Below are positions 31,001-56,674 of a DNA stretch of 64,000 nucleotides, piece by piece; within the stretch, counting starts at the first letter, position 1; every line of letters starts with the position of its first letter. A model generated the notes under the pieces. The model searched no databases. It was given only the letters and a program-made list of their open reading frames with translations, and had not been told where the DNA came from. Both the position numbers and the translations under genes were made by a program. Origin of the DNA: a virus (lineage: Duplodnaviria > Caudoviricetes); the IMG/VR virus record IMGVR_UViG_3300037453_000856, positions 1,092-65,091 of that record; one strand, given 5' to 3'.

Positions 31001-31637
31001 CGAGGATGTCGTTTCTCACATTTCCGATCTTGCTGCCAAGGGTCTTTACGCTATGGAGCATCCCGTTCGCTATTATAGCCCCGATTCTATTGGCGATTCT
31101 CCTTCTTTTCGCGGCAAAATTGACCATATTTTCTTCTCTCCCGACCATAAGCATGCCGCCGGCTTTGACAACAAGTTCGGCTCCTCTTTTGTTCCTCCTG
31201 CCGAGCGTAATGGCCAGGTCGCTTCTTATGCTCTTTCTCTTTTCCAGATGTATCCCGAGCTTGAGGACGTTACTTTTTCCATTATGCAGCCTAGCGCTTC
31301 CGAAGGTTTTTCCCCCTACTCTTTTAACCGCGCTTCCTATACTTTCCATAACGACCCTGACACTATAAAGGAAATTATTAGTCAGATTCAGCTTTCCGAG
31401 CGTCTCGCTCGTCGCCGCGCCGAACTTGAGGATCAAGGTAGAGACTTAACTCGTACCACTCAGGATATCATCAACGACATCAACGAGCTTATGTTTAACA
31501 ATCCCGGTTTGATGCCCTTCTTTATGCTGCTTGACGGCGACGACTCTTTTTACCGGTCTTCCAACCCTCGTTTTGTTAAGCCCTTGTACGATCCTTACGA
31601 AAATCCCGAGCTGTTTTTCCCTAGCAAAAAGAAATGA
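28074..31637 (+). CDS. Largest ejection-type protein with C-terminal PD-(D/E)XK nuclease domain
   Basis: FVDYS...RILPFPQF polyvalent-protein-like region; ELGELLHAL...FRGKIDHIF...FDNKFG...QVASYA nuclease motifs. Confidence 0.7.
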   Translation: MSSLYPYPFAGLDHETSLKPVSDKDREETAKFLKDDVWPVVKPVLHGGKVALDWLLYPAQVLWNPVALGSREFNRRYLYPLTESAGYIPQDIEDYFSYRNALRTGASKEEASELLSDVKKRHLDALSQVVFPYVEGLNDENEPFGRRLWNHLQFPGTDKAGNFSTKGALTEFFAPGHFIGSVPSGIEVARHFNKQLGLKGAGAVPSYVLFPGLGFASDFAINKRLGFKFNALTPSGRSSAVPRTASSSWYREARNGQRALLQLADIPLVRGEGVYRRLSNLGKAMDAYQASRVLKSNSPYFETGPATSKNLSRDFAEGFVNHYDSLVAPKIDSIPLVTKVMSYPYRYGRALAGMPPARVRELRRISGASSDPLDASFLSKLFENSPSSPVYLLPTSDAADVIRHAPIPVHVSEVPYLQEVYSASSAPSTAEKVVRSLYMQSYTPKVAVNNAFNAGPQSVNSGARLYSPTYWKAFFNSLFNRRSSSSKSISDARRAFVQNSLSDMVSFGPADKGFGYKVVGYVPRTLAKTSGRFERAARTASYADLVEQGWSPSRAYSEVLNSFVDYSSPTMSSRVVGRILPFPQFYFGNTANNIRMAYSNPAMMVYPRYLAQSLNNSNEAYVKDPVAYDNQYGFNAHIPGTDDKINFRSYLPQLKNSPGDLVYSGGRITLPYENFLKAIYGAFSDEVPPNDPLRLHAPAPVPYISLSSTPSSPEDLKRNQTIVDFIRSVPLSRDLYDFLVSGNSDAYNFTTGKNQPDLPSRLARYFFSVSEDTPAVSYYSRYRNLVNNLIENNAGFEFDPSVYRFRDLIEELYGRSLSPSSFTEKLVEPGDSYPEHEYVDSSYSPEDFDSYLYPLSQALAPYKNRAYIDNSELGELLHALIFNRNARVYFDTSKIDQFAFSSLGAFASVLSDLVYNSDLRGDDAIAYLSPFLLTNRQLGNTDVPKDELDKKVLKYWPIDETDTPDYRNPFLYDGTYEDVVSHISDLAAKGLYAMEHPVRYYSPDSIGDSPSFRGKIDHIFFSPDHKHAAGFDNKFGSSFVPPAERNGQVASYALSLFQMYPELEDVTFSIMQPSASEGFSPYSFNRASYTFHNDPDTIKEIISQIQLSERLARRRAELEDQGRDLTRTTQDIINDINELMFNNPGLMPFFMLLDGDDSFYRSSNPRFVKPLYDPYENPELFFPSKKK

Positions 31638-31943
31638 GCAGTTTTATGTCATGCTCGGGACGTCACCTTAAACAAGGAATCTTATGGATACTGGGCGGTT
31701 TATCCTCATGCCCGGGAGCCTGCTTTAGGGGAGAAATGTTAGAGATTATGTCAACATCGATATATCTCTTCTTCGTTGACGGCCTTTTCGCGCCTTGCCC
31801 ATGGCATCACCGACGAAGTCGCGGTTTCAATATTTAGGCAGTTTATCGTCTTGCCCGGGACGTTACTCAAGGAGGAATCTAGATACGAATTATACCTGCT
31901 TCGTTATCGGCCTTTTTAATTCTTGCCTAGGAGTGGACGAAGC
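31636..31943 (-). ncRNA. Tandem array of five covarying H-type pseudoknot units (31636-31663, 31693-31718, 31781-31805, 31837-31862, 31909-31934)
   Basis: Identical 4-4-6-1-4-3 spacing with compensatory changes in the variable helix; strand not certain. Confidence 0.8.
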
Positions 31944-31981
31944 CGCCGTAGATAACAACAACATGAAAGAAAGTGTTCATG

Positions 31982-32014
31982 GCAGACTTTGTTTTAAGAC
32001 CCGTCTGCTGGTCT
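31982..32014 (-). ncRNA. Classical H-type pseudoknot overlapping stop codon of last early gene
   Basis: Minus strand AGACC-A-GCAGAC-G-GGUCU-UAAAACAAA-GUCUGC: 5-bp and 6-bp perfect stems, A-rich loop 3. Confidence 0.75.
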
Positions 32015-32312
32015 AAGCTAATTCTATGTTCGACGGATCTGGCACTTCGTCCGCCACTATGATTTCCTTGTTCTCGATGTCTTTTTTCCACTCTTCGAAC
32101 GCCCCTTGAGCGTCGTCCATCGTGTAGAATTTGGTTCTCGGTTCCCAGCGCATCATCGCGCCTTCAAGGCCTTTTTCGAGAATGAAGCAAGGGTTTACTT
32201 CCTTCTTTTGGTCTTCCGGAACTCTGATTGTGACAACCGTCATCGAGTTGTCGAAAACCCAGATTACGTCTCTTCCGTCATATTTTATAATATCACTCAG
32301 CTGTAGTTTCAT
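32013..32312 (-). CDS. Hypothetical protein, last early gene, directly upstream of pseudoknot array
   Basis: 99 aa ORF with SD (GGAG) upstream. Confidence 0.75.
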   Translation of the reverse strand: MKLQLSDIIKYDGRDVIWVFDNSMTVVTIRVPEDQKKEVNPCFILEKGLEGAMMRWEPRTKFYTMDDAQGAFEEWKKDIENKEIIVADEVPDPSNIELA

Positions 32313-52068: not shown

Positions 52069-52509
52069 TTACTTCTTCCACAGTTTGTTGGCGATCCTTT
52101 TCCAGATGGAGCCCCGGTTCTTTTTGTCCACTTCCTTTTCCAAGACTTCTATTTTGGTTTTCATGAGTTCGTTTTCCTGGCGGAATTTGACGATTTCCTT
52201 TTTCCAAAATTCGATTTCTTTCTGCTTGCTTTCCTGTTCTTGCAGCAGCCAGTCGAGCTCGTCGGTTCTGAGCAGCACCGTTTTGTCCACGGCAGCGTGC
52301 TCTTCTTGAGATTTCCTTCTCCTTCCGATGCTTTCCTTGCCGTCTTTGGCGCTCTGGAGGCTGAACCAGAAGTTCTCTGATTGCGTCTTGTAGCCCATTC
52401 TGTCCATGATCTTCGCATCAAACGTGATCAGCGTTCCTTCGCGAAGCTCGCCGATTCTGTTGAGGTACCAGATTTTTCTCGGTTTAGCGGTTTTCCTTTC
52501 CTTTTTCAT
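52069..52509 (-). CDS. SH3-like family protein with coiled coil
   Basis: KIWYL...FWFSLQSAKD; GAGGAG SD. Confidence 0.6.
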   Translation of the reverse strand: MKKERKTAKPRKIWYLNRIGELREGTLITFDAKIMDRMGYKTQSENFWFSLQSAKDGKESIGRRRKSQEEHAAVDKTVLLRTDELDWLLQEQESKQKEIEFWKKEIVKFRQENELMKTKIEVLEKEVDKKNRGSIWKRIANKLWKK

Positions 52510-52912
52510 CTTTGTTCTCCTCTTTTTCTTGTAATTTTCTTATTTCTTTTTGTATGCCCACGCGCCATGTCGTGAATCTTTTGTGTTCTTCGTAGAGGGT
52601 TTCTGTGTAGTCGTTCGTCGGTTTCCCGCTGACTTCCAATATCTTTTCTGTCAGCTCTGCGTCTACTACGTCTATCCACGCCAGCTCTTTTTCCAGAACT
52701 TCCAGTTCCGTTTTCCCGGCTTCGTCTTTTATTATTTCCACTATTTTTGCGTGGTTTTTGTCGAGCGGCAGCGCGACTGTCACCACGTACTTTTCTTCTT
52801 TCACCACCTTGCCTTTTTCCGTGTAAGGAGGGTTCGGTGTTAGGTACCACGGCCACCCGTACGCGTCTTTCTTGAAGACGTATATGTCGTCGCCCGCCTT
52901 GTAATCGTTCAT
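52484..52912 (-). CDS. SH3/KOW-like family protein
   Basis: YKAGDDIYVF...GKVV; GGGAG SD. Confidence 0.65.
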   Translation of the reverse strand: MNDYKAGDDIYVFKKDAYGWPWYLTPNPPYTEKGKVVKEEKYVVTVALPLDKNHAKIVEIIKDEAGKTELEVLEKELAWIDVVDAELTEKILEVSGKPTNDYTETLYEEHKRFTTWRVGIQKEIRKLQEKEENKDEKGKENR

Positions 52913-52935
52913 CTTGTTCTCCCTTTGTAATATAG

Positions 52936-52961
52936 GGCCTTTTAACGTCTTGCCCAGGACG
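52936..52961 (-). ncRNA. Isolated pseudoknot-family copy (PK8)
   Basis: Plus GGCC-TTTT-AACGTC-T-TGCC-CAG-GACG; 19 nt from stop of ArdC-like gene. Confidence 0.8.
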
Positions 52962-52979
52962 GATAGGTTCGCTGCTTGC

Positions 52980-53774
52980 TTAAGCGGTGGCAGCTTCCGC
53001 TTTTTCGGGACCCAGGAGCCTCTTGATGCAGAGGAGAGCCGCGGTCATCGCCTGGTAATACGCGGTCTTGTTGCATTTGACAAGATCGAGCATTTTCTGG
53101 CAATATTCCTCGCACTCCTGCTGGGTCTCGTAGATGTTTTCACCCATGCGGGCGAGCATCTGGTGGGAGAACAAAGCGGCAGCGAGTTCTTCCTTGGGCT
53201 TGGCTTCGTCGGTCATCCAGTAGCGTCTGGTGCCGGGGAGGAAGCCCATGGCGTGGAAGATCTCGTGCAGGACGGTCATCTTGTCGTGGACAGTCTTGAC
53301 CGCGTCCTTGGTCAGCGAGATGGTGACCTCGTTGGTGTCTTCGTCGAGCGTGGCCTTGTTGACCTCGTCAGGGTTGCAGACAAACCTGACGCCCATGGCC
53401 TTGACCTTATCCACTACAGCCTTGAACTCAGGGCGGGGTTCGCCGTCCTCGGCGACCTTGCCAACTCTCAGCCACTTGAGGCTCTTGACCTCGCGGTAGC
53501 CGGTCTTTGGATCGGGCTTTTTGTCGACAACGTAGCCATTTTCGACCACAAATTTGCTGGTGTCAACGCCGCGCTTCTTCGCGTAGTACTCGCTCTCGAA
53601 GTCGCCGGACTCGTTGAACACGCTCATGAGGCAGAACTTGTTGATCTTCCCGTTGAAAGAAACGGGGTTGTAATGATCTTCAATCGGCATTCCGGCCTTG
53701 TAGGCGTCGATCGCTTTCTTGTTCATACCGCACTTGTTGTGATAACTGTAAAGAGATTTGATGTTTTTGTCCAT
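52980..53774 (-). CDS. ArdC-like / polyvalent-protein zincin metallopeptidase
   Basis: VLHEIFHAMG HExxH, KEELAAALFS, C-terminal helices like the ArdC protease domain. Confidence 0.65.
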   Translation of the reverse strand: MDKNIKSLYSYHNKCGMNKKAIDAYKAGMPIEDHYNPVSFNGKINKFCLMSVFNESGDFESEYYAKKRGVDTSKFVVENGYVVDKKPDPKTGYREVKSLKWLRVGKVAEDGEPRPEFKAVVDKVKAMGVRFVCNPDEVNKATLDEDTNEVTISLTKDAVKTVHDKMTVLHEIFHAMGFLPGTRRYWMTDEAKPKEELAAALFSHQMLARMGENIYETQQECEEYCQKMLDLVKCNKTAYYQAMTAALLCIKRLLGPEKAEAATA

Positions 53775-53809
53775 AGTTTTACCTCTATGTTGTTGAATTT
53801 GTGTTGTTT

Positions 53810-53851
53810 AAAAATATTATTTTTAATTTCACAAGAAATAAAAATATTTTT
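53810..53851. promoter_or_regulatory. AT-rich hairpin element H2 (loop ACAA/TTGT)
   Basis: Imperfect inverted repeat upstream of 53774 start. Confidence 0.75.
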
Positions 53852-54507
53852 TATCTTTTCCTATATTTCATGTCGTAGTCGTAAGACGAGTCTTTGTATT
53901 CCCATCTCTGCCATTGCATGCAGCTTGACGTTACTTCCGCGTCGATCATCTGCGTTTTTTCCGCGAGCTTGATGATCTTGTCTTTGAAGTACTTGAGAGG
54001 GACCTCTTCCGTTTCGTAGTTTCTGAGATGTCCGCTGATATTGACGGTGTAGACGAACTCTCCGAGTTTCGTCTTTGCCTTGTAGATTTTGATCTCGCAG
54101 CCGCCTTCGCTGCCGACGGGCATGTAGCTGTCCGGGTCGGCTTTGTATTCGCCCCAGCGCTTGTCCATTTCCTTGTAGAACTCTTCGCTCCAGGCCCATT
54201 TGATGTTTCTTTTCTGGCGCTTTCTGTGCTCGGCCCAGTATCTGTCGTCCATGGCGTCTCGCTCTTTGCGGCTCTTGTGGTTCTTTTTCCACTTTGCCCA
54301 GCCGCCTTCTTTGCTGACTTCTCGCGGTGTATAGTTGTTCTCGTCTACGACGTTCCATTTGAGTTTCAGGCTTTTCCCGAAGTCTTTGTCCGGCTCCAAG
54401 GTCTTGCCTTGCTCAAGCATGAATCTCACTTTGCAATGTACGTGCGTCCAAATGCTCATAATTTGTTTTTTCCTTGTGGAGGGTTGGGGAGGCTTTTGCC
54501 TCCCCAT
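53851..54507 (-). CDS. Hypothetical protein with basic insertion
   Basis: 218 aa ORF; MSIWTHVH probable start. Confidence 0.65.
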   Translation of the reverse strand: MGRQKPPQPSTRKKQIMSIWTHVHCKVRFMLEQGKTLEPDKDFGKSLKLKWNVVDENNYTPREVSKEGGWAKWKKNHKSRKERDAMDDRYWAEHRKRQKRNIKWAWSEEFYKEMDKRWGEYKADPDSYMPVGSEGGCEIKIYKAKTKLGEFVYTVNISGHLRNYETEEVPLKYFKDKIIKLAEKTQMIDAEVTSSCMQWQRWEYKDSSYDYDMKYRKR

Positions 54508-54513
54508 TTGTTG

Positions 54514-54705
54514 TTAGTCCTCTAACTCGACCATCTCATCGATGGCGTTGATGACCTGGATGTCCTCGTCCGTCAGGCCGACGCTCTTTGCAAGGGCGTT
54601 TTCGAATTTGCGCTTCTTGCTGTTTAACTTGCTAATGGAATCGAGTGTTACCGCCTTCACAGAGGCGACCGAGTAAGGCTTTTTAGCAGCCATGGTAAAC
54701 TCCAC
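54514..54705 (-). CDS. Small protein (start probably MAAKK, approx 54693)
   Basis: GGAG SD before MAAKKPY. Confidence 0.65.
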   Translation of the reverse strand: MEFTMAAKKPYSVASVKAVTLDSISKLNSKKRKFENALAKSVGLTDEDIQVINAIDEMVELED

Positions 54706-54729
54706 TTTGTGGGTTAATTGGTGATTATG

Positions 54730-54759
54730 CTGGGCAGTTTAGCGACTTGCCCGGGTCGT
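54730..54759 (-). ncRNA. Isolated pseudoknot-family copy (PK6)
   Basis: Plus GGCA-GTTT-AGCGAC-T-TGCC-CGG-GTCGT; compensatory GAC/GTC swap relative to array copies. Confidence 0.8.
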
Positions 54760-54770
54760 CCAGGAGGCAA

Positions 54771-55511
54771 TCAGAGGCCTAAAGCCTTCAATCTGAGTTC
54801 GATTTCGGCTCTGAACTTCCTATTCTTGGCTCGTTCCTCGTCCCTGGCCTGACGCTCGTCGAGCTTTTCAACCTGGCGCCTGAGGGAACGCTCTTTGCGT
54901 TCCTGCTCTTTGCGTTCCTTGTTGATGGCTTCCTTTGTCCAGATGACTTGGATTCGTCCCTGGCATTTGAGCGCAGCGACTTCCGAATCCACCGCCGTGT
55001 TGTCATAGATGACTTCACCTGGGTAGCGCTCCATCTGCTTGGCCATGCGCTCGACCACGTGCTGAGGCACGCCGTGGATGTTGCTGCGGTTGCCCTTGAC
55101 GTGGATGACCTGGAAGTAAGCGTTGTACTTCTTAGCCAGCTTCCTGTAGAACTCGATGTGCGCGTTCTTGACGAAGGTGTTGGCCACAACGACGTACTTG
55201 CCCACGGCGAGGAGACGCTCGGCCTTCTGCTGGCAGTAAGCTATAGCCTTGCCTATGTACAGTTTGTTGTACTTGTACTCGAGATCGTCGTCGGTGAAGT
55301 AGTCGTCTTGTTCGACGGGAGCGACGGGCTGAGTCAGGCAGAAGTGCGCGGCGAGCTGCTCGGCAGCTTTTCTGGCCACGGTGGACTTGCCGGAACCCGG
55401 TATGCCCTTGAAGATTAAGAGGATTTTGCGACCGCGAGCGGCCTCGATGACGCTGGTCGTGATGCCAGCAACGTTGGCAGTGAGGGTGCCAGCCGTTTCA
55501 ACTTTGCTCAT
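54771..55511 (-). CDS. P-loop polynucleotide-kinase-like protein (AAA_33 / N4BP2-like)
   Basis: KGIPGSGKST, EQDDYF, VVVANTF, SNIHGVPQHVVERM. Confidence 0.85.
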   Translation of the reverse strand: MSKVETAGTLTANVAGITTSVIEAARGRKILLIFKGIPGSGKSTVARKAAEQLAAHFCLTQPVAPVEQDDYFTDDDLEYKYNKLYIGKAIAYCQQKAERLLAVGKYVVVANTFVKNAHIEFYRKLAKKYNAYFQVIHVKGNRSNIHGVPQHVVERMAKQMERYPGEVIYDNTAVDSEVAALKCQGRIQVIWTKEAINKERKEQERKERSLRRQVEKLDERQARDEERAKNRKFRAEIELRLKALGL

Positions 55512-55556
55512 AGCTTGTGCCTTTGAGTTGTGGTTAATTGTATAAATCCTTGTTGT

Positions 55557-55636
55557 TGGTGGAGGTGGCGGGACTCGAACCCGCTTCTCAAGCTTCCCTT
55601 TTCGGGCTTAAGCCTGATCGACGCCTTATCACCCCC
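55557..55636 (-). ncRNA. 80-nt tmRNA tRNA-like domain lacking the mRNA-like domain (mini-tmRNA)
   Basis: GGGGGUG/CACCUCC acceptor with G3-U70, A73, encoded CCA; stemless D-loop AUAAGGCGUCGA; 8-bp P2a UCAGGCUU/AAGCUUGA; GAA linker; T-arm GCGGG-UUCGAGU-CCCGC. Confidence 0.85.
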
Positions 55637-55652
55637 ATGCACAACAAATTTG

Positions 55653-56111
55653 TTAGTCCGTGAGGAAATCCAGAGCATCCTCGGCGATTGCTTTCGCCGT
55701 GGTTTCTATGTCCTGGAAACGCCTTGTGGGGCTGTTGCTCTTGCCCCAGTAAAACTCACCGTCGAACGACTTGTACCAGCCGCCCGTGATTATCGAGCTT
55801 CCGGTTGTGTCAATGGTCATAATGTCTACGCAAAAGACCTTCTCATCGTTCCCTACCGGGAAGTCTTCCATATCGTCCTGGCTTGTGCCGATTTCGAAAT
55901 GTGCGCACGTGACAGCTTCTGGATGCTCTTCGTTGACGATGTCAATCTCCTGGTTCCTTTCTGTGTCCTCGATCGTCTTGTTAAAGACGTATAGCGACCT
56001 GACGGTCGTGCACTTGGGATTGGAGTAAAACAGAGCGTACTCCCTGAGCAGCTCCTTTACGAGGTCGAAGACTTCGTAAAACTGCTCTATGTTCATGAAT
56101 TTGCTAAACAT
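55653..56111 (-). CDS. Hypothetical acidic protein
   Basis: AAGGAGG SD; downstream of hairpin H3. Confidence 0.75.
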   Translation of the reverse strand: MFSKFMNIEQFYEVFDLVKELLREYALFYSNPKCTTVRSLYVFNKTIEDTERNQEIDIVNEEHPEAVTCAHFEIGTSQDDMEDFPVGNDEKVFCVDIMTIDTTGSSIITGGWYKSFDGEFYWGKSNSPTRRFQDIETTAKAIAEDALDFLTD

Positions 56112-56131
56112 ATTGTCCTCCTTGGATTATG

Positions 56132-56178
56132 AAAATTTATATATTTTTTATTTCACCAAAAATAAAAATATAAATTTT
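56132..56178. promoter_or_regulatory. AT-rich hairpin element H3 (loop CACCAA)
   Basis: AAAATTTATATATTTTTTATTT / AAATAAAAATATAAATTTT. Confidence 0.75.
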
Positions 56179-56192
56179 AGACTTGTAAAAGC

Positions 56193-56219
56193 GGGCAGTT
56201 TCCCTTCTTACCCAGGAAG
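56193..56219 (-). ncRNA. Isolated pseudoknot-family copy (PK7)
   Basis: Plus GGCA-GTTT-CCCTTC-T-TACC-CAG-GAAG; U-G pair on minus strand; downstream of NADAR stop. Confidence 0.75.
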
Positions 56220-56254
56220 TGGCTGTACTAGCGATGTATGTACTTACTTGTAAG

Positions 56255-56674
56255 TTACTTGCCGTTCCTTATGGATTCCCTTTCTTCCATGAGAATCTTG
56301 CCGAGCATGTTCTTGCCATATCCGTTGCAGACACCCCAAAAGGTGTCGCCCCAGGTATTGCCTTCTACTAGCTCTTCGTCACCAGTGTCGATCAAAAGCT
56401 GTCTGAGCTCAGGGTTTTGGAACTTCTGGTGAATGACCCACTTCATGACTTCGACTTTAATCTTGTCCCAGTCCGGGCGAAGGCTAACGCTTCTGCCGAG
56501 CCTTTTCGCCTCTTTGCCCGAGAGCCCGGCGAACTTGGCACGCTCATCCATGTCTTTGGTCTTGAAAGACTGGAATACGGCTTCCGTGCAGGTGTATTCC
56601 TTGCCACCCATCGTGATGTTCATATTGAACATGTTGGAGAGGAAGAAATACTTACCTCTAAATCTGTCAATCAT
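56255..56674 (-). CDS. NADAR (YbiA-like) N-glycosidase / ADP-ribosyl hydrolase
   Basis: FRGKYFFLSNM, TEAVFQSFK, EAKRLGR, RPDWD, KF.NPEL..LL.TG, LVEGNTWGDTFWG, GKNMLGKILM. Confidence 0.92.
   Translation of the reverse strand: MIDRFRGKYFFLSNMFNMNITMGGKEYTCTEAVFQSFKTKDMDERAKFAGLSGKEAKRLGRSVSLRPDWDKIKVEVMKWVIHQKFQNPELRQLLIDTGDEELVEGNTWGDTFWGVCNGYGKNMLGKILMEERESIRNGK

Follow-up and report, generated by a model that had tools for sequence, protein, structure and literature searches.

A widespread 27-nucleotide pseudoknot downstream of stop codons in phages of many bacterial phyla, and its possible role at cistron boundaries

The 64,000-nucleotide (nt) stretch of DNA analysed here, hereafter called the window, is nearly the whole of a complete virus of 65,091 bp with terminal repeats (IMG/VR record IMGVR_UViG_3300037453_000856). 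Its minus-strand mRNA contains several copies of a small element which is a self-contained 27-nt pseudoknot of the H type. An initial annotation of the window noticed three solitary copies at the 3' ends of three genes, which it called ArdC-like, kinase and NADAR, and suggested that the element co-regulates these genes of counter-defence type with an array of further copies. We find that the element belongs to a new and widespread family of pseudoknots that follow stop codons in phages of many bacterial phyla, and that it is not a device of three counter-defence genes. Small RNA motifs which covary strongly and recur across many phyla are rare, and they have usually proved to be riboswitches, ribozymes or key regulatory sites.

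Fold of the element and covariation of its helices

From 5' to 3' the element is made of the 5' strand of helix 1 (4 nt), loop 1 (2 nt), the 5' strand of helix 2 (5 nt), one unpaired base, the 3' strand of helix 1 (4 nt), a six-base loop 3 and the 3' strand of helix 2 (5 nt). The four pairs of helix 1 are free in sequence, save that the pair at the junction is always C-G. Helix 2, formed by the hairpin loop with the 3' tail, has five pairs which are also free in sequence apart from an A-U pair at the junction. Loop 1 is a C followed by a pyrimidine (C or U), loop 2 is a single base, and loop 3 reads N, A/U, A, A, A, C, with an AAAA end in a variant form. The invariant positions (the C-G and A-U pairs, the C that opens loop 1 and the AAAC at the end of loop 3) gather at the helical junction, and the distal positions of the helices are free.

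Evidence for this fold comes from three pattern scans of IMG/VR, each of which left another part of the element unconstrained. In scan set A helix 2 and the loops were fixed and helix 1 was partly or wholly free; in scan B helix 1 and the loops were fixed and helix 2 was free. Helix 1 shows 46 double changes in 54 sequences with at most one mispair, compared to 16 in shuffles, and none of 500 shuffles reached a value as high; its two inner pairs have 16 and 24 double changes. Among the matches listed, at least three of the four helix 1 pairs are formed in 96 of 101 unique matches when helix 1 is wholly free, and at least four of the five helix 2 pairs in 66 of 74 unique matches, with about 40 different sequence pairs, when helix 2 is free. 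Among the same matches compensatory changes are seen at all five pairs of helix 2, with 83 double-change cells compared to 24.5 in shuffles (0 of 500 as high). If the partner strand is slid by one to three columns, helix 2 pairing falls to 19%-46%. The pseudoknot drawn in the initial annotation is thus correct, as both helices covary in independent IMG/VR samples.

The mean computed stability is -2.0 kcal/mol for the helix 1 hairpin and -5.5 kcal/mol for the helix 2 duplex. A larger fold was considered and rejected: pairing between the two flanks amounts to -8.8 kcal/mol compared to -8.6 kcal/mol in shuffled controls, and no flank is conserved, the upstream flanks showing no conservation across 108 family members. 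The element is autonomous, having neither conserved flanks, nor flanking helices, nor an association with any gene family.

The strand had earlier been described as not settled, because some pairs fit the plus strand better. Such pairs are real, one in each of two array copies, but overall the G-U pairs settle the question in favour of the minus strand. Among the matches listed, the unconstrained pairs of helix 1 include 19 G-U compared to 4 C-A pairs (a C-A pair would be G-U if the element were plus-sense), and helix 2 has 35 G-U cells when it is read in the minus sense. In the window, the solitary copy PK3 (Table 1) and the array copies at 31636, 31780 and 31836 contain compensations or wobbles that work on the minus strand only. 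In all annotated phages that were examined, moreover, the element is oriented like the genes around it. Given the G-U bias and this agreement with gene sense, the element belongs to the mRNA, which in the window is a minus-sense RNA.

Copies in the window

A covariance model was built from 106 family members and the window was searched with it, filters off. This gave exactly eight full-length, gap-free copies, all eight on the minus strand, with E values from 1e-14 to 8e-7; the next match in the window scored 13.8 bits. A loose pattern matches the window nine times compared to 1.1 expected from shuffles, and nine matches were reached in none of 100 shuffles. Three of the eight copies are solitary (PK1, PK2 and PK3) and five form an array (Table 1). 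The solitary copies are where they had been reported, each extended here by one base to the full 27-nt element. They do keep the spacing of the array, since internal spacing is identical across all copies of the window, and their helix 1 does differ and covary from copy to copy (CGTC/GACG, CGAC/GTCG and CTTC/GAAG on the plus strand).

Helix 1 of PK1 is CGUC/GACG, and helix 2 forms four of its five pairs, with a variant 3' strand. The stop codon of gene 52980-53774 is 18 nt before this copy and the start of gene 52484-52912 is 22 nt after it. PK2 is canonical, with CGAC/GUCG in helix 1 and all five pairs in helix 2; the UGA stop of a kinase gene is 12 nt before it, and the next small gene follows after about 26-38 nt. 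PK3 has CUUC/GAAG in helix 1 and one U-G wobble in helix 2 that pairs in the minus sense only. The NADAR stop codon precedes PK3 by 35 nt, and UUUU and an 80-nt AT-rich tract come after it, then gene 55653-56111. These distances to the stop codons agree with the earlier estimate of about 12-35 nt. An anti-Shine-Dalgarno (SD)-like seed had been seen before PK2. The sequence in question, GAUUGCCUCCU, is present upstream of the copy at 54732, but it includes the UGA that stops the kinase gene, and elsewhere it is not conserved.

The array takes up the convergent gap where the last gene on the minus strand (32013-32312) faces the last one on the plus strand, which ends at 31637. Its copies are irregularly spaced (54, 87, 56 and 72 nt), and a tandem-repeat finder reported no array at 31636-31934. 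In the last copy helix 2 is compensated (GAGCA/UGCUC), and a U-rich tract comes after this copy. On both strands of the gap (31638-32012), which holds the five pseudoknot copies, a canonical hairpin-plus-U terminator is absent. This gap separates the late (plus) from the early (minus) gene blocks of the phage, and the last two small genes of the minus strand are transcribed toward it from a strong sigma-70-like promoter (11/12 matches, with TG) at 32703-32676.

Position relative to stop codons

The spacer is the distance between the final base of a stop codon and the first base of helix 1; the stop codon taken was the nearest one that ends an upstream open frame of 60 codons or more. Among 196 unique IMG/VR instances, 29 spacers are 5 nt long, 20 are 6, 11 are 7, 9 are 8, 7 are 9 and 11 are 10. 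Only 10 of the 196 are below 5 nt, and the onset at 5 nt is sharp. A stop codon is found within 24 nt in 66% of these instances, compared to 13% in a mirror-image control on the opposite strand. The preceding stop is TAA in 105 cases, TAG in 48 and TGA in 34.

When a stop codon is in the A site of the ribosome, five more bases just fill the mRNA entry channel. RNA structures are unwound by the ribosomal helicase when they reach about +11 to +13, counted from the P site. Since the channel is filled by five bases, the element is as near to a terminating ribosome as it can be without being unwound.

No such rule governs the distance to the next start codon, which varies widely. For 151 non-redundant copies, the next gene on the same strand is within 45 nt in 50 copies, at 46-120 nt in 44, and farther away or absent in 57 (38%). 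Some copies are wedged between convergent genes with 5-7 nt on each side, and one group of copies is 4 nt upstream of the 5' end of a tRNA-Thr. The earlier notion of a structured RNA module that can be reused and goes with the 3' ends of cistrons is supported.

Occurrence in phages

The element is present in more than 200 IMG/VR contigs, which is a lower bound, and the family is larger than the matches listed. A blastn search of GenBank phages with a 37-nt query found it in 121 records, among them phages of Staphylococcus (85), Lactobacillus (12), Bacillus (9) and Mycobacterium (4), with single or few records for Synechococcus, Streptococcus, Pasteurella, Moorella and others. Six copies are found in cyanophage S-EIV1; all have the orientation of its genes, and four of the six begin about 5-6 nt past a stop codon. 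Single copies are found in Staphylococcus phietavirus B166, Lactobacillus KC5a, Anoxybacillus A403 and Streptococcus Javan554, in each case with the minor head protein region on one side and the genes for scaffold and major capsid protein on the other. A 361-kb provirus-like contig (L249, G002:C1:342500-346800) carries six copies within 2.3 kb, among very small open reading frames (ORFs). All six share the helix 1 ACAC/GUGU, so copies can multiply within a genome. Judging by these sequences, the shared helix is evidence for intragenomic duplication or concerted evolution. In Pasteurella phage PMP-GADVASU-IND (KY203335.1, L251), a tRNA-Lys gene has one copy of the element on each side, and an HNH endonuclease gene is adjacent.

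Rfam 15 has no family for the element, as judged from the window at the gathering threshold, from region 31600-31960 (cmscan, E<=10) and from 14 bacterial loci at the gathering threshold. The only Rfam match in the window at the gathering threshold is a tmRNA-like stretch away from the pseudoknots. Complete genomes of E. coli gave no blastn match. Literature, sequence-word and keyword searches found no description of the element. It may be among the roughly 10,000 candidate structured RNAs of viruses in a published catalogue, which does not discuss it (PMC10690425).

Bovine gut metagenomes contain the window sequence, and one metatranscriptomic run holds 72% of its sampled words. The contigs of that run (depth 2-22) span genes and none of the three solitary elements; one of them ends at 56221, beside PK3. 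In a second RNA run, a relative is represented by a contig that runs into adapter sequence about 10 nt past 52971. Uncovered stretches and contig ends from a single study at low depth cannot show RNA ends, and they were not used as evidence.

A bacterial relative

Bacteria were scanned with one genome per species and a pattern that fixes 23 of the 27 positions of the element. At least 120 loci were found, compared to an estimated 9 or so expected by chance. The carriers include Omnitrophota, Desulfobacterales, Chloroflexota, Bacillota, Planctomycetota, Actinomycetota, phyla of the candidate phyla radiation (CPR) and others.

The bacterial element has a context of its own. Among the matches listed, it forms the end of a conserved ORF of 17-28 codons in 86 of the 112 loci with full flanks; in 64 of these 86 the stop codon of the ORF is inside loop 3, and in 13 it overlaps helix 1. 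A few of the ORFs stop upstream of the element, some of them with UGA and a 5-nt spacer. The ORF has a His-Cys-x-x-Gly-Cys core, varies at third codon positions and is preceded by a good SD sequence, and many loci have an inverted repeat of the Rrf2-operator type upstream (examples in Table 1). Where the stop codon is inside loop 3, translation of the ORF must unfold the element. This leader context speaks for a regulatory consequence of folding. Downstream genes are Rrf2 in 12 of 30; others encode MarR, Usp, heavy-metal P-type ATPase/HMA, ferritin, hemerythrin and ribonucleotide reductase. By our own reading of the sequences, an ordinary hairpin terminator comes after about 20 of the 86 copies among the matches listed. 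The leader peptide and the RNA gave no match in Pfam, NCBIfam or Rfam. From its sequence features, the bacterial ORF with its element looks like an undescribed leader-peptide attenuator or a small metal-binding peptide gene.

Neighbouring genes

Genes upstream and downstream of the element are unrelated to each other across phages, and no gene family is associated with it. Therefore its pairing with kinase, NADAR and zincin-like genes in the window is incidental. A special tie to counter-defence genes, as first proposed, does not hold, as the element is also present in the head-gene modules of phages and in the leaders of bacterial operons. For the same reason of unrelated neighbours, co-regulation of the three genes with the array is not supported. 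The label ArdC-like is not established either, since the encoded 264-amino-acid (aa) protein has a Pfam match below the cut-off and no PHROG match. The kinase and NADAR genes are recognisable (Table 1).

Table 1. Pseudoknot copies and upstream genes of the window, with examples of the bacterial upstream ORF
Feature	Position	Strand	Basis
PK1, solitary pseudoknot	52935-52961	-	sequence; covariance model 39.7 bits, E 1e-12
PK2, solitary canonical pseudoknot	54732-54758	-	sequence; 43.2 bits, E 7e-14
PK3, solitary pseudoknot	56193-56219	-	sequence; 34.5 bits, E 1e-10
Five-copy array, cores 31908-31934, 31836-31862, 31780-31806, 31693-31719, 31636-31662	31636-31934	-	covariance model
264-aa gene upstream of PK1, weak zincin-like (MPTase-PolyVal) resemblance	52980-53774	-	Pfam E 0.0017, sub-threshold
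P-loop kinase/ATPase gene upstream of PK2, polynucleotide-kinase-like	54771-55511	-	Pfam AAA_33 7e-11; phrog_2071 3e-28; phrog_505 (polynucleotide kinase) 1e-12
NADAR-domain protein gene upstream of PK3	56255-56674	-	Pfam NADAR 6e-24; phrog_1017 2e-42
Bacterial upstream ORF, example (loci L256-L375)	L261:6896-6976	-	
Bacterial upstream ORF, example (loci L256-L375)	L256:999-1070	+	

With the 264-aa protein or the kinase as query, no close relatives of the phage that could serve a test of synteny were found, and the NADAR protein as a contig query returned the source contig alone. Between the kinase gene and a 152-aa gene, the minus strand at 55557-55636 gives an 80-nt Rfam match to transfer-messenger RNA (tmRNA) with 56.6 bits (gathering score 47). 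The match is 80 nt long and nevertheless covers model positions 1-374, so only the tRNA-like ends are present; we refer to this candidate as a mini-tmRNA. ARAGORN made no call for this stretch.

The intergenic tracts 53780-53850 and 56112-56190 are very AT-rich, in a region where genes have about 55% GC, and both precede genes on the minus strand. Probably they act as early promoters of an unusual kind, with weak sigma-70-like matches only. One contig from a DNA run fuses position 53854 to 56133 with 24 other letters in between. This contig therefore points to a related phage that lacks the cassette of the 218-aa and 63-aa genes, PK2, the kinase gene, the mini-tmRNA and the 152-aa gene. Both break points fall in the AT-rich promoter-like tracts, which suggests modular exchange there.

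Possible functions of the element

Tentatively, and with less than even confidence, we favour the idea that the element is a barrier at the cistron boundary which insulates the upstream cistron from RNA decay. With the stop codon in the A site of a ribosome, the element would stand immediately beyond the mouth of the mRNA entry channel, and from that position it could stay folded while the upstream gene is translated. Folded, the pseudoknot would be a compact mechanical barrier to decay in the 3'-to-5' direction, and possibly to other enzymes that track along RNA. PK1, PK2 and PK3 would then insulate the mRNAs of the 264-aa, kinase and NADAR genes, and the five-copy array might cap the end of the whole leftward transcription unit. 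Compact triplex pseudoknots are mechanically stable, and repetitive extragenic palindromic (REP) and other intercistronic stem-loops stabilise upstream cistrons. The barrier is favoured because of the triplex architecture, the position after stop codons, the independence of whatever is downstream, the occurrence at convergent ends and at a tRNA 5' end, and the array at the end of a unit.

Several points weigh against such a barrier. Both helices are thermodynamically weak alone, so it would have to depend on tertiary contacts. A plain barrier leaves the conservation of junction and loops across phyla unexplained. The bacterial copies overlap the end of a conserved ORF, with the stop codon inside loop 3 in most of those listed, as described above. 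A decay barrier in front of a terminator, as in about 20 of these 86, would be redundant, and a regulatory role looks more natural there. Finally, the element has a conserved place in Firmicute siphophages, just upstream of scaffold and major capsid genes, and this would also agree with a function that serves the message downstream.

The weak helices, the conserved junction and the bacterial leader context together give some weight to the suggestion that the element is a switch in cis, whose folding is gated by a small ligand or ion at the junction, as in preQ1-I aptamers, or by ribosome traffic on the upstream ORF, and alters downstream transcription or expression of the next gene. We think this unlikely. 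The bacterial leaders speak for it: an operator of the Rrf2 type, an upstream ORF with Cys codons and its stop in loop 3 (64 of the 86 among the matches listed), a hairpin terminator after some 20 of these, and a coherent set of downstream genes with functions in regulation, metals and stress. An invariant junction combined with freely varying distal helices is the pattern of an aptamer pocket, and the helices of the marginally stable pseudoknot are weak. Phage copies, however, have no recognisable expression platform, and the broad distance to the next start codon is at odds with one. Their downstream genes are mutually unrelated, 38% of copies have no near downstream gene on the same strand, and some are between convergent genes. 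Five tandem copies in a gap free of genes are hard to reconcile with a switch.

An RNA processing site is quite unlikely, though it would account for copies between cistrons, beside tRNA genes and upstream of the highly expressed scaffold and capsid genes. In this case ribonuclease (RNase) P, misled by a mimic of the acceptor arm, or self-cleavage would split the cistrons and let them decay independently. The hosts of the carrier phages share few RNases besides RNase P and polynucleotide phosphorylase (PNPase). A conserved core with free helices is reminiscent of small ribozymes, and these are common in intergenic regions of phages. Yet at 27 nt the element is smaller than every natural self-cleaving ribozyme known, it matches no ribozyme family of Rfam, no base is conserved at the putative cleavage site, and there is no RCCA-like tail.

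A non-canonical terminator or pause site, in which helix 2 would form in the RNA exit channel against a hairpin loop already made and release or pause the polymerase together with a U-rich tract, is decidedly unlikely. Such a tract does start within 3 nt of 31 of 93 phage copies, compared to 2-12 at control offsets, and a canonical terminator is found within 100 nt downstream of only 10 of the 93. The window agrees with this in that the array gap has no canonical terminator, the last array copy is followed by a U-rich run, and PK3 by UUUU and then an AT-rich promoter-like tract. The tract is, however, missing from two thirds of the copies. As a marker of unit ends it was rejected, for it is no commoner there than in tight intercistronic gaps (14/50 with the next gene within 45 nt, 14/44 at 46-120 nt, 11/57 beyond or without one). 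Termination would also silence the next gene in the one third of copies that precede a co-directional gene by 45 nt or less. Among the matches listed, bacterial copies show no enrichment of U tracts and about 20 of the 86 have an ordinary terminator after them, helix 2 has only five pairs, and there is no long hairpin. A role as terminator is thus weakened.

A bolder formulation can be made, which we consider rather doubtful. The element could be a new functional RNA core, rather than a passive structure, at the boundary between translation termination and the fate of downstream RNA: either a 27-nt aptamer gated by a ligand and/or the terminating ribosome, which would make it the smallest sensor of the riboswitch type, or the smallest natural module that cleaves itself or directs RNase P. 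Phages might use it as a portable cistron separator, and bacteria for the control of Rrf2, metal and stress genes with a Cys-containing leader peptide.

A few other candidates were rejected. A selenocysteine insertion sequence (SECIS) of the bacterial type disagrees with the use of all three stop codons and with spacers mostly of 5-10 nt. A solitary CRISPR repeat or RNA anti-CRISPR is at variance with helices that vary freely while the fold is kept, and there was no match to a CRISPR-repeat family of Rfam. An embedded sigma-70 promoter was suggested by -35/-10 pairs over PK1 and over a Staphylococcus copy (BPROM annotation). There is no general enrichment: a -10 hexamer (at least 4/6) is found 16-18 nt past the -35-like loop in 18 of 170 copies, as at other downstream offsets.

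Whatever the element does, its stereotyped location, right where the terminating ribosome ends, points to a connection in bacteria between the end of translation and the fate of the mRNA that has not been described. If the 27-nt element does prove to be a portable cistron insulator or switch, it would be a useful part for the engineering of operons. Well-studied culturable phages are among its carriers, including Staphylococcus phietaviruses, Lactobacillus and Bacillus phages and cyanophage S-EIV1.

Comparison with known systems

Several small structured RNAs resemble the element in part. The -1 frameshift pseudoknots of luteoviruses (beet western yellows virus, BWYV; pea enation mosaic virus 1, PEMV-1; sugarcane yellow leaf virus, ScYLV) come close in architecture: they are about 27-28 nt long, have four to five pairs in helix 1, a 2-nt loop 1 that begins with C, a single junction base and an A-rich loop 3 of 6-7 nt, and they stand 5-8 nt past the A-site codon. 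In contrast to them, the element has no slippery heptamer, follows the stop codons of unrelated genes, occurs in arrays and convergent gaps, and is bacterial and phage-borne rather than plant-viral. Recoding by readthrough or frameshift was rejected. Of the copies that have a stop codon within 12 nt, 55 in number, an open frame continues for at least 40 codons in only 7 (frame 0), 5 (-1) and 6 (+1). The next gene shows no preference for a frame (6, 15, 9), and no upstream sequence is conserved.

The preQ1-I aptamer (RF00522) is also a tiny H-type pseudoknot with an A-rich 3' tail in the groove of helix 1, a conserved junction and a weak helix 2. Its loop 2, however, has 4-6 bases that hold the C pairing with the ligand, whereas that of the element is one base. 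The element is outside the leaders of queuosine genes, and its phage copies lack an SD or terminator platform. Membership of this family was rejected: there is no RF00522 match at 31600-31960 (E<=10), the downstream genes are diverse, and the distance to the start codon is broad.

In the Pistol ribozyme, too, a hairpin loop forms a pseudoknot with downstream sequence and an A-rich stretch follows the hairpin, and it is frequent in phage-like regions. The element is only half as large, has neither P2 nor P3 nor the G-U junction where Pistol cleaves, and matches no family of Rfam. ToxI arrays of type III toxin-antitoxin systems, and the pseudo-ToxI of phages, are arrays of small pseudoknot RNAs which are possible in phages. 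ToxI, however, is an exact head-to-tail repeat of fixed period beside ToxN, whereas the element is irregularly spaced and mostly solitary. A ToxI-like antitoxin was rejected because of this irregular spacing, the lack of an array by the tandem-repeat finder, and the lack of any family of the ToxN/AbiQ type among the neighbouring proteins scanned.

The remaining parallels concern position rather than fold. The promoter early stem-loop (PeSL) cassettes of T4-type phages are short structured repeats among small early genes, near promoters, and copies within a genome may have a helix sequence in common. A PeSL is a simple hairpin that goes with an early promoter and serves as a point of recombination, whereas the element is a pseudoknot under selection at the RNA level with no promoter at a fixed distance. 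REP sequences, bacterial interspersed mosaic elements (BIME) and the intercistronic stabilisers of malE-malF, puf and pap are likewise repeated and oriented structures just past stop codons within operons. They are long, GC-rich, genus-specific hairpins, in contrast to a 27-nt pseudoknot with a conserved core, found across phyla, whose stabilising effect is putative.

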